Made by a program: the position numbers. A stretch of 64,000 bases of DNA from a virus. Taxonomy: Duplodnaviria; Heunggongvirae; Uroviricota; Caudoviricetes. The stretch lies in the IMG/VR virus record IMGVR_UViG_2718218139_000007. One strand, given 5' to 3'. Positions 6,001 through 9,000 of this stretch are shown piece after piece. Within the stretch, counting starts at the first letter, position 1; every line of letters starts with the position of its first letter.

Positions 6001-9000
6001 CAATACGTATTTCATCTCGGAAGCCGGAAAGCGTTATCGCCGTGATGTGGCGCTAATTGTTCGCCAGCAGCGGCTGAAATTAAACCTGTCCGGAAGGCTG
6101 GTGATAAAGATTATTGCAGAGCCACCGGATAAGCGCCGTCGTGACCTGGACAATATCCTGAAAGCACCACTGGATGTGCTGACGCATGCCGGACTTCTCA
6201 TAGACGACGAGCAGTTTGATGAAATCAATATTGTGCGCGGTCAGCTCGTTCCTGGTGGGCGGCTGGGGATAAAAATCACAGAACTGGAGTGCGCATGAAT
6301 AACCACTATTTACAGTTTGTGCGTGAGCAGCTCATTATCGCCACCGCTGATTTGAGTGGGGCAACAAAAGGTCAGCTTGAAGCCTGGCAGGAGAATGCCA
6401 TGTTCGATACAGGGCGTTACAGGCGAAAAAAAATCCGGTACCGCGATGAAGTGACTGGAAAAATGATAACGCGGGATAATCCACCAATCCCGGGAAAGCA
6501 ATCGCTGGCGAAGGGGACGTCAATTCCTCTGGTCAGTCCGGTTGAGTTTTCGACATCATCGTGGCGGCGGGCTGTTCTGTCTCTTGAAGAACATCATAAA
6601 GCCTGGTTGTTGTGGTGTTACAGCGGGAGTATTTGTTGGGAATATCAGATCGCGATAACACAGTGGGCGTGGAATGAATTTAATACTCAATCCGGTACCA
6701 GAAAAATTGCTGGGAAAACGCAGGAACGCCTGAAAAAATTAATCTGGCTGGCGGCGCAGGCAGTAAAAGCAGAACTTTTTGGTGGGGAAGGTTATGAATA
6801 TCAGGAGCTGGCATTACTGGCGGGAGTGACAACTAAAAACTGGTCCAAAACATTTACTCGTCACTGGGTTGCAATGAAACACATTTTTCACCGACTGGAT
6901 AGTGAGGCTTTATTATTTGTAATGAGAACACGTTCAAAACAAAAGGCGGCATTTTCAAAGCAAAGTGTTGCAAAAGTAGATTGAAAGGCATATATTTCAT
7001 GCAAATCTGATATTTTGCCGATTTTGTACGTGATGGCAAAAGCAAACAAAACCCGCCCACAAGCGGGTTTTTTTGTGCCACTTATCTCGGATAGACATGG
7101 TGAATGCGCTGGTGGAGGAGATAAGGGTGATTTTTGTATGCTTGCAACATTGATTTCGTAACGTTATTATCCTGCGCCCGGCCCTTTAGCTCAGTGGTGA
7201 GAGCGAGCGACTCATAATCGCCAGGTCGCTGGTTCAAATCCAGCAAGGGCCACCAACCGCCACTAGCCATCAGGAAAGAGCGTCAACCCTTTAAGTTGAG
7301 TGTGCGAGGTTCGAGTCCCCGGTGGTGGTCCATTATCGGTATTCTGCGTTGTTAGCTCAGCAGGACAGAGCAATTGCCTTCTAAGCAATCGGTCACTGGT
7401 TCGACTCCAGTACAACGCGCTACACTTATTTTCCCGGCTCGCTTTTGCGGGCCTTTTTTGTATCTGCGCCACGCCCGGCGCATACCAACCACAGAGCCTT
7501 TCGGGGGGGGAGCTTACGGAGTGGTCAGTGTGACTTTCTCTGTGGGCAGATCGCTCCCGGGCGTTGGCTCACCCACCCAAAGGAACGTCACGATGTTTGG
7601 TATTTTTGGTAAAAAAAGCCCGCAGAGCGGCAACGGAAATTAAAAAGTTTGAAAAACGCGATCTGGCACAGGTGGTGATTAACGCCGCATACCTGGTGGC
7701 CTATGCAGATGGTGAATGTGAGGCTTCCTAGAAAGCGAAGATCGAACAGGTACTGCGTAATCAGCCTGCGCTGTACGCGTTTACGTCAGAAATTAATGCG
7801 ATTAGCGCAACCATTATCGGTCAGCTGGATACGAACTTTAAAACTGGTCGTCGTGCGGTGTTACGTGAGATCGAGGATGTGAAACACGATACGCGTGAAG
7901 CGGAAGATGTGCTGGATGTGGCGGTGGCCATTGCGGAGGCAGACGGCGAAATTGAGCCGGAAGAGCGCAAGGTGCTGGAAGAGATTGCCGGTGTTCTGGG
8001 TCTTCGTCTGGAGAATTACCTGTGACGGTAAAACTGCGCCTGACTGTGGCTGCACTCCTGCTGTTTCTGGTGGTGATGGTGGATTTCACCAGCAGAATCA
8101 TGTCGGTGCTGGCGGATGGGGTGCTGGTCTGCGGCATTATGGTATTGCTGTGGCCGGTGATAAAAAGAAACAGCCTGCATAATGCTTGATTTTTTTGTTT
8201 GCTGTTTATTAAAAACACTTCTGCATGGTGAATCCCCCTGTGCGGTGGGGCAATCAGCAAGAAGGAATATGGGGTAATCGCGGATTCAGGTGCTGATACT
8301 GAATTCACCGGGAGGCACCCGGCACCATGCTTTGCCACAAAAGTGTTATTTCTGTTTTTCTCAAACTATCATCGTTATCCCTTTATTTTCGGCTGCGCAT
8401 GGCGCGGCCTTTTTTTTACGACCAGCCACTGGCAGATGGTCATCCTGTGATTTGATTCCGCTTCCGGCTTTTTAACTCTGTTCCTCTACACGGGAGAAAT
8501 TCGATGTCGATTAAACATTACGATGTTGTCAGGGCGGCGTCGCCGTCAGACCTTGCGGAAAAGCTGACACACAAACTGAAAGAGGGCTGGCAGCCATACG
8601 GCGGACCGGTTGCCATTACGCCGTACACACTGATGCAGGCGGTGGCTATTGAAGGAGAGCCACAGGTCGGCCCTTCATCTGAGCCGGATTGGTACTACGT
8701 CATCGTACTGGCCGGGCAGTCCAATGCCATGGCTTACGGTGAAGGGCTTCCGCTGCCGGATTCATACGATGCTCCGGATCCGCGCATTAAACAGCTGGCG
8801 CGCCGCAGTACAGTGACGCCGGGCGGGGCTGCCTGCAGATATAACGATATTATTCCGGCTGACCACTGTCTGCATGATGTGCAGGATATGAGTACGCTGA
8901 ATCATCCGAGGGCTGACCTGAGCAAAGGGCAGTACGGCTGTGTCGGCCAGGGTTTACATATTGCCAAAAAACTGCTCCCGTATATCCCGAATAACGCGGG

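Follow-up and report, generated by a model that had tools for sequence, protein, structure and literature searches.

Decaying tciAB cargo at the stx position of a toxin-free lambdoid prophage

Layout of the slot in two prophages

The window analyzed here is a full stretch of 64,000 nt from IMG/VR record IMGVR_UViG_2718218139_000007 (Caudoviricetes). It carries two prophages, A and B, that share one gene order: Q, tRNAs, a terminator, cargo, an STnc100-type small RNA (sRNA), nanS-p, and lysis genes. The element in question is the cargo slot between the tRNAs and nanS-p, which in prophage A holds a pseudogene of the TerB family, tciA, followed by tciB, and in prophage B holds stx2AB. The initial annotation had proposed a common Q-tRNA-nanS-p architecture for A and B, and Pfam, tRNA, and Rfam scans, together with blastn matches between the flanks, confirmed it. 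The features of prophage A are listed below; comparison loci that were fetched for the analysis carry L numbers (L001 etc.).

6289-6984, + strand: Q antiterminator (Pfam PF06323, Phage_antiter_Q, E = 1.2e-91)
6968-6996, + strand: candidate late promoter PR' (consensus scan only)
7048-7075, + strand: tR'-like terminator (consensus scan only)
7180-7255, + strand: tRNA with a CAU anticodon (Met according to ARAGORN, tRNA-Ile in the NCBI homologue)
7257-7332, + strand: degenerate middle tRNA (ARAGORN Lys-UUU; homologue of the second tRNA of prophage B)
7346-7420, + strand: tRNA-Arg (UCU) (ARAGORN and Rfam)
7436-7459, + strand: intrinsic terminator after the tRNAs, the left slot boundary (terminator scan)
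7460-8203, + strand: cargo, comprising the tciA leader, the tciA pseudogene, and tciB (missing from L074 and prophage B)
7593-8025, + strand: tciA pseudogene, TerB family (profile and homologue matches of the repaired protein)
7611-7617, + strand: A7 run, a +1 insertion relative to the intact A6 (alignment with intact alleles)
7729-7731, + strand: in-frame TAG at codon 46, GAG in intact alleles (alignment with intact alleles)
8022-8189, + strand: tciB, an open reading frame (ORF) for a 55-amino-acid hydrophobic DUF3927 protein (PF13064, PHROG 1470)
8194-8366, + strand: STnc100-type sRNA (Rfam RF02076, 100.8 bits against a gathering score of 47)
8391-8417, + strand: terminator after the sRNA (terminator scan); sRNA and terminator (8194-8417) form the right slot boundary
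8504-10354, + strand: nanS-p, intact sialate O-acetylesterase gene (Pfam DUF1737, SASA, DUF6645)

A 133-nt leader with an AAGGAA ribosome binding site precedes tciA. The GTG start codon of tciB overlaps the tciA stop codon (GTGA), and a GGAG motif lies 9 nt upstream of tciB. Holin, endolysin, and Rz genes follow nanS-p. In L001, the homologue of the prophage A Q is annotated as "bacteriophage antitermination protein Q" and the nanS-p counterpart as "SASA family carbohydrate esterase." The sRNA at 8194-8366 had escaped the initial annotation.

The corresponding features of prophage B were as follows.

54159-54554: Q, of a family unrelated to the prophage A Q
55119-56177: methyltransferase gene, no counterpart in prophage A
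56218-56505, + strand: tRNAs (CAU, Arg, Arg; 56218-56468) and terminator, the left boundary
56506-57834, + strand: cargo, stx2AB (comparison with the empty site L074)
56557-57510, + strand: stx2A, broken in this sequence (several frames, homopolymer indels)
57526-57795, + strand: stx2B, intact, inside the cargo
57868-58080, + strand: STnc100 sRNA, the right boundary (Rfam RF02076, 149 bits, gathering 47)
58299-60250, + strand: nanS-p, indel-fragmented in this sequence

When A and B were aligned by blastn, positions 7142-7469 matched 56180-56515 on the left at 88% identity (E = 1e-118), and on the right 8205-8251 matched 57880-57925, 8298-8329 matched 57992-58022, and 8491 onward matched 58288 onward. 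This homology is far beyond chance. The junctions were placed with L074, an IMG/VR locus with an empty slot, which has the methyltransferase gene, the tRNAs, and the terminator that follows them. The same terminator is kept in prophage B (56481-56505), and the homology of L074 stops there; the segment preceding STnc100, which L074 also has, begins ~5 bp later. Measured against this locus, the cargo runs from 7460 to 8203 in A and from 56506 to 57834 (stx2AB) in B. The slot edges therefore coincide in A, B, and empty-site relatives, at the end of the post-tRNA terminator and just 5' of the sRNA, and the two intervals are homologous on both sides.

The slot of prophage A is wholly taken up by tciA, tciB, and the leader. 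A tblastn search with Stx2A and Stx2B against prophage A-type loci (e.g., L016, L023, and L085, with Q 98% and NanS-p 99 to 100% identical to those of the window) found no match. With no stxA or stxB in its slot, prophage A is not an Stx-converting prophage, in agreement with the initial annotation, which had also been right to place stx2AB between the tRNAs and nanS-p of prophage B (56557-57795).

That prophage B holds stx2AB is true by homology, judged from a sequence in which stx2A is not an open frame. From 56274 to ~60100 the window has ~40 private single-base indels relative to O157:H7 PV15-279, nearly all in homopolymer runs. They split stx2A and nanS-p into several ORFs and alter a tRNA T-loop at 56274. 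Positions 53100-56250 are identical to PV15-279, and the best RefSeq genome over the indel region reaches 97.7% identity, with none higher. Because the indels cluster beside a flawless stretch, they are probably an artifact of sequence quality rather than biology, and stx2A of this particular sequence is unreliable.

Elsewhere in the window, the match of prophage B to the Stx2 prophage of PV15-279 breaks down immediately after the holin gene (60946-61161). ORFs at ~61000-64000 resemble tail or tape-measure genes, and the late region may therefore be a different one or have been deleted. In the closest genomes, the stretch that separates the late operons of A and B (28001-53000) contains nleA, nleH1-2, two integrase genes, and an IS630 element; A and B are therefore two prophages in tandem. 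In strain PV0838 the distance from the tciA region to the 28001-53000 segment is ~4 kb, compared with ~20 kb in the window.

The middle tRNA of prophage A gave no Rfam tRNA hit and is unannotated by NCBI in L001 and L002. Placed side by side with 56304-56378 of prophage B, its similarity is visible by eye, and it resembles a degraded counterpart of the second Stx-prophage tRNA (Arg). The PR'/tR' region (6968-7075; ACAAAACCCGCCCACAAGCGGGTTTTTTTG) has weak, subthreshold Rfam similarities to isrK and isrJ; the pair would function as the PR'-tR' of lambdoid phages does, if the analogy holds.

Identity and lesions of the prophage A cargo

We reconstructed a repaired TciA of 143 amino acids by deleting a single A of the A7 run and translating across the TAG. 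The search of this reconstruction bore out the TerB-like identity that had been proposed for it: it matched Pfam PF05099 (TerB) with 55.1 bits against a cutoff of 24.4 (E = 1.1e-14; domain at residues 31 to 138), PHROG 632 ("tellurite resistance") over positions 1 to 143 of 143 (E = 2.2e-68), and the TerB structure PDB 2JXU (phmmer E = 5.6e-7). It is 96.5% identical to TciA of phage JLK-2012. The small hydrophobic ORF noted beside it is tciB, whose 55-amino-acid product has two hydrophobic stretches and matches Pfam PF13064 (DUF3927; 60.4 bits against a cutoff of 25, E = 1.7e-16) and PHROG 1470 ("TciB-like," E = 1.8e-29). PHROG assigns the two families to its category "moron, auxiliary metabolic gene and host takeover." Going by its sequence, the window tciA is a pseudogene of the TerB family and not a functional member.

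Genes resembling tciA are present in 131 sequenced phages, among them P1, D6, SJ46, and others that infect Erwinia, Vibrio, Pseudomonas, or Klebsiella. In the literature, a few papers on P1-like phage-plasmids name tciA and tciB, none with an experiment; the other matches of the search were mostly unrelated papers on Trypanosoma "TcIa." A defense-system role for TciA or TciB was considered and dropped: PADLOC found nothing meaningful (best E = 0.0088), and NCBIfam gave only subthreshold similarity to DjlA and YmfL.

The intact tciA of JLK-2012 begins ATG TTT GGT ATT TTT GGT AAA AAA GCC, with six A residues (A6), and has GAG at codon 46. The same A6, GAG state is found in strain 2013C-3342, O145 RM9872, and MS10711, so the intact alleles do not share the interruptions seen in the window. 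The in-frame TAG reported by the initial annotation is present and cuts off two thirds of the single TerB domain. The frameshift that it placed at the A7 run stands relative to the ancestral ATG, whose frame stops after 16 codons, but not as a clear inactivation, since a TTG at 7597-7599, 4 nt past that ATG, opens the post-A7 frame and changes the N terminus from MFGIFGKK to (M)VFLVKK. An A7 allele without the TAG, from a dog isolate, is annotated by NCBI as an intact 142-amino-acid TerB protein with a TTG start. NCBI handles A7 alleles lacking the TAG in this way (L090 2521-2949; WP_338890611.1), and the automated call masks the frameshift. The alleles of O55:H7 DEC5B, 2013C-4187, and O26:H11 11368, identical to that of the window, are marked as pseudogenes by NCBI/RefSeq ("internal stop") with no frameshift called. 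Because the TTG lets A7 alleles without TAG be annotated as intact, the TAG is the only unambiguous inactivating lesion. A -1 programmed frameshift at AAAAAAAG was rejected on inspection of the sequence: the A_AAA_AAG heptamer is out of frame for a switch from the ATG frame to the TerB frame.

We counted alleles in 5,426 complete E. coli genomes with 45-mers in which every 28-base seed spanned the variant base. The TAG allele was present in 576 genomes, at 1,004 places and up to 5 per genome, and the GAG allele in 159 (164 places). An exact A7 75-mer was the best match in 553 records, against 8 for the A6 version with the same flanks. The broken allele is the common one in enterohemorrhagic E. 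coli (EHEC) lineages (O157:H7, O55:H7, O26, O111, and others), and much of its excess must stem from the intensive sequencing of clonal lineages and from copying between prophages that share a cell.

The homopolymer indels of prophage B raised the question of whether A7, itself a homopolymer insertion, and TAG might be sequencing or assembly errors of the window. Such errors have next to no probability: 7430-8500 is a gapless match to O55:H7 DEC5B at 99.9% identity, and hundreds of independently sequenced complete genomes carry both lesions, which refutes the explanation and shows that the allele is inherited.

The fetched loci fell into the following allele states.

A6 + GAG: 9 loci
AAAAGAAAA + GAG (intact variant): 8 loci
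A7 + GAG: 3 to 4 loci
A7 + TAG: 10 loci
5' truncation at window position 7644 + TAG: 5 loci
A6 + TAG: 0 loci

Among these loci, TAG is confined to A7 or 5'-truncated backgrounds. Because the series has no A6 + TAG locus, A7 arose first and TAG second. Further, independent damage to tciA consists of extra frameshifts in L030 and L084 and an IS3 insertion in L050 and L071. A stop at W44 of tciB occurs in L050, L071, and L073, copies in which tciA is truncated or disrupted by an insertion sequence (IS). The tciB of the window is open, with two lineage-specific replacements, A8T and V40M.

Intact tciA alleles are under strong purifying selection, with a ratio of nonsynonymous to synonymous substitution rates (dN/dS) of 0.03 to 0.06 at dS values of 0.33 to 0.73. 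The window tciA differs from that of L047 by 0 synonymous and 5 nonsynonymous changes and from that of L036 by 1 and 8, respectively. Segregating sites were 66 synonymous and 15 nonsynonymous among intact alleles and 11 and 12 among A7 alleles (Fisher P = 0.0024), a pattern of relaxed constraint on tciA in the A7 lineage. The proposal that the cargo is itself decaying is upheld by A7 and TAG, by the further lesions elsewhere, and by this nonsynonymous excess.

It could be argued that tciA is still alive: translation might begin at the TTG at 7597, or slippage on the A run might restore the frame, and the TAG might be read through or divide the gene into fragments that still work, such as a C-terminal one starting at the GTG at 7858, with selection maintaining the allele. 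The NCBI annotation of A7 + GAG alleles as intact proteins fits this idea, as do the open tciB and the TAG allele itself, ~6-fold commoner than GAG by places and present in up to 5 copies per genome. Two short-protein families, PHROG 3920 and PHROG 9865 ("unknown function," 48 and 74 amino acids), correspond to the C-terminal part of TciA and might be read in the same way; their probable source is gene prediction on truncated tciA pseudogenes, since gene callers turn pseudogene fragments into such short families. Against a living gene, the TAG leaves only a third of the TerB domain, no prophage tRNA has a CUA anticodon, A7-lineage alleles show the nonsynonymous excess, TAG copies go on to lose their 5' ends, copies with a disrupted tciA gain tciB stops, and the prevalence is accounted for by the many clonal EHEC isolates sampled and by recombination between prophages in the same cell. 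We therefore regard a functional tciA in the window as very unlikely.

Neither do we give much credence to a related proposal, that the A7/TAG allele is no passive wreck: its dominance in EHEC and its presence in up to five copies per genome might mean that loss of TciA was selected during prophage domestication (the protein being costly or interfering with co-resident phages), or tciB alone or an RNA of the locus might be maintained. The A run is A6, A7, or A8 in different tciA copies, and if the proposal were true, this short run could act as a mutational on/off switch.

Variable cargo and its proposed exchange

We surveyed the slot in 80 IMG/VR loci anchored on NanS-p, using tRNA spacing, tblastn, and ORF analysis. 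The following contents were found in these loci and in related phages.

Empty, ~488 bp from the last tRNA to nanS-p: L029, L031, L032, L034, L040, L074-L077
tciAB behind several unrelated Q, tRNA, and methyltransferase backbones: several loci
stx1AB: L026, L045
252-amino-acid membrane protein (phrog_1521) and a different DUF3927 gene: L008 group, phage 2B8
117-amino-acid phrog_2873 protein, with an antisense 111-amino-acid phrog_4407 protein between sRNA and nanS-p: L046, L082, L078
Two small ORFs (phrog_2571, phrog_4280) ahead of intact tciAB: L038, L059
ISEc20: PPompW prophages

The IS3 insertions of L050 and L071 add a second IS to the list. Other cargo thus exists at the same site in related prophages, and the initial annotation was justified in calling it exchangeable, the flanks being the same and the contents varying from empty to stx1AB, tciAB, genes of unknown function, or an IS. 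The five alternative cargo proteins (252, 117, 111, 74, and 69 amino acids) match only PHROGs of unknown function; in Pfam there was no match for the first four and only a subthreshold DUF7336 similarity for the 69-amino-acid protein.

The same cargo lies on different backbones, and different cargo lies on the same backbone. Intact tciAB is found on a 933W-like backbone (methyltransferase and tRNA-Ile/Arg/Arg) in L007, from strain MS10711, and adjoins Q in phages JLK-2012, PPyecE, and Evi. Conversely, L008-L015, L019, L022, L024, and phage 2B8 (L088 1359-2319) have the 252-amino-acid multipass protein with its DUF3927 gene, and not tciA; the NanS-p of L008-type loci is 99 to 100% identical to that of the window, and these loci lack the tRNAs and the STnc100 core. 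L007 also has two STnc100-like segments, 2056-2205 and 2540-2679, between tciB and the esterase gene.

Several junctions bear directly on how the slot is filled. In L038 and L059, the added two-ORF module (~1.06 to 1.79 kb upstream of nanS-p) has the terminator segment, window 7439-7468, on both sides, which suggests that the post-tRNA terminator acts as a module-boundary sequence. The DUF3927 gene of L057 is chimeric, with an N terminus of the L008 type and a C terminus of the window type, and five loci have a recombination breakpoint inside tciA at window position 7644. We infer that the mosaicism of the slot is the product expected of recombination between conserved flanks.

The alternative is common descent with local insertions and deletions only, in which no cassette exchange takes place and the slot is not a recombinational hot spot. 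It draws on the IS elements and simple truncations seen in the slot, on the flanks of A and B being merely 88 to 94% identical, and on the empty sites, which could be deletions. It does not account for tciAB pairs that are 95 to 99% identical behind unrelated Q families, with different tRNA sets and with or without the methyltransferase gene, nor for nearly identical nanS-p genes that follow different cargo. The breakpoint at 7644, the chimeric gene of L057, and the duplicated terminator segment also argue against it, and we consider it very improbable.

Probable expression, related systems, and significance

Taken together, these data led us to interpret the slot as the usual site for accessory genes (morons) in the lambdoid late operon, occupied by decaying tciAB in prophage A and by stx2AB in prophage B (probability about 0.85). 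It lies after Q, the candidate PR'/tR' pair, and the phage tRNAs and is followed by an STnc100/PasD-type sRNA, nanS-p, and the lysis genes. Lambdoid phages that reside in or infect the same cell would exchange cargo through homologous recombination in these conserved flanks.

stx is known to lie downstream of Q and to be cotranscribed with the late genes from PR' (PMC6266700, PMC8065619). A crude consensus scan of the + strand at 7170-8600 found no sigma-70-like promoter. Given the stx position, the lack of a detectable promoter, and two upstream terminators that Q-modified polymerase would ignore, tciAB, like stx2, would be transcribed after induction, for the most part by Q-modified polymerase that passes tR' and the post-tRNA terminator. 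If TerB-domain proteins are a guide, intact TciA and the membrane protein TciB might act together in a stress- or exclusion-type role. In prophage A that role of TciA would have been lost, the remnant hitchhiking with the tRNA/sRNA/nanS-p module; full-length TciA cannot be made, and tciB, with its own GGAG, could still be translated.

Several points weigh against this interpretation. Something other than neutral hitchhiking could lie behind the very high prevalence and the multiple copies of the TAG allele, and A7 alone may be tolerated through the TTG start. The polymorphism test is built on nonindependent, recombining sequences, and low divergence inflates nonsynonymous counts; L005 and L065, both intact, give a dN/dS of 0.32. 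Exchange would follow from mosaicism rather than from an observed recombination event, and late expression from PR' from position and a crude promoter scan. The G+C content of tciAB (0.526, compared with 0.522 and 0.477 for the flanks and 0.439 for stx2AB) equals that of its flanks, and the genes therefore lack the compositional signature often quoted for morons.

The closest known system is the stx locus of 933W/Sp5-type phages (Q, PR'/tR', ileZ-argN-argO tRNAs, stxAB, nanS-p, S-R-Rz). Prophage A resembles it in element order, in slot boundaries, and in its homologous tRNA/terminator block and STnc100 sRNA, and differs in having no stx, an unrelated Q (PF06323), no methyltransferase gene, and a degenerate middle tRNA. 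nanS-p itself occurs in both Stx and non-Stx prophages, with seven or more in EDL933 (PMC8065619, PMC10462455). The tciA and tciB genes of JLK-2012 (NC_049942) and the "TciA/TerB-like protein" of PPyecE are the same genes at the same tRNA-esterase position; the PPyecE TciA is 93.7% identical to the repaired window protein, and both phages have intact copies (A6, GAG), unlike the A7 + TAG copy of the window.

The gene names come from tciA-tciB-tciC of phage P1 ([quoted passage not shown]). P1 TciA is likewise a TerB-family protein, matching along its entire length at 40 to 51% identity, and tciB-like genes are annotated beside tciA in several phages, as here. P1 differs in phage type and genomic context and in having annotated promoters of its own for tciA, and no tciC was seen here. 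To our knowledge, the P1 tci names rest on similarity to ter-operon genes and not on experiments. TciA shares the TerB fold family with TerB of the terZABCDE tellurite resistance cluster (PDB 2JXU); unlike the members of that cluster, the window tciA is a stand-alone phage gene without other ter genes, linked to tellurite only by name.

At the right border of the slot, the STnc100 (RF02076) segment scores above the gathering threshold in both A and B; the prophage A copy diverges in its 3' third and has a different terminator (8391-8417). The sRNA PasD, related to STnc100, lies directly upstream of the esterase gene, and TerB is among the conserved neighbors of the PasA/PasC sRNAs (bioRxiv 10.64898/2026.05.13.724894). 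The sRNA at 8194-8417 has the position of PasD; as the text of those papers gives neither sequence nor coordinates, identification as PasD was set aside and positional equivalence alone is claimed. DLP12 of E. coli K-12 likewise has an accessory gene, the porin gene nmpC, between Q and the holin gene (quuD-nmpC-essD), and differs in that nmpC is on the opposite strand and the interval is without tRNAs, nanS-p, or an STnc100 hit. An equation of STnc100 with IpeX (DLP12, PA-2) was dropped as unsupported, K-12 quuD-nmpC-essD giving no Rfam hit at gathering thresholds.

Much of this was already known: the stx position is textbook knowledge, the pseudogene is flagged in RefSeq, and tciA and tciB are annotated in JLK-2012 and PPyecE. 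The present analysis makes modest additions, namely the exact junctions, the allele series, and the relaxation test, and leaves current understanding unchanged. Its practical value is limited to the unreliability of this stx2A sequence and to the annotation of the tciA pseudogene, which deserves correction where NCBI calls A7 alleles intact. tciA is a clean case of a phage accessory gene that decays in stages (a frameshift, then a nonsense mutation, then truncation) while constraint on it relaxes measurably. On the reading that we favor, stx fills a general site for accessory genes in lambdoid late operons, and prophages of the same cell that lack the toxin retain this site and its homologous flanks, which would serve as recombination substrates to move or replace stx.

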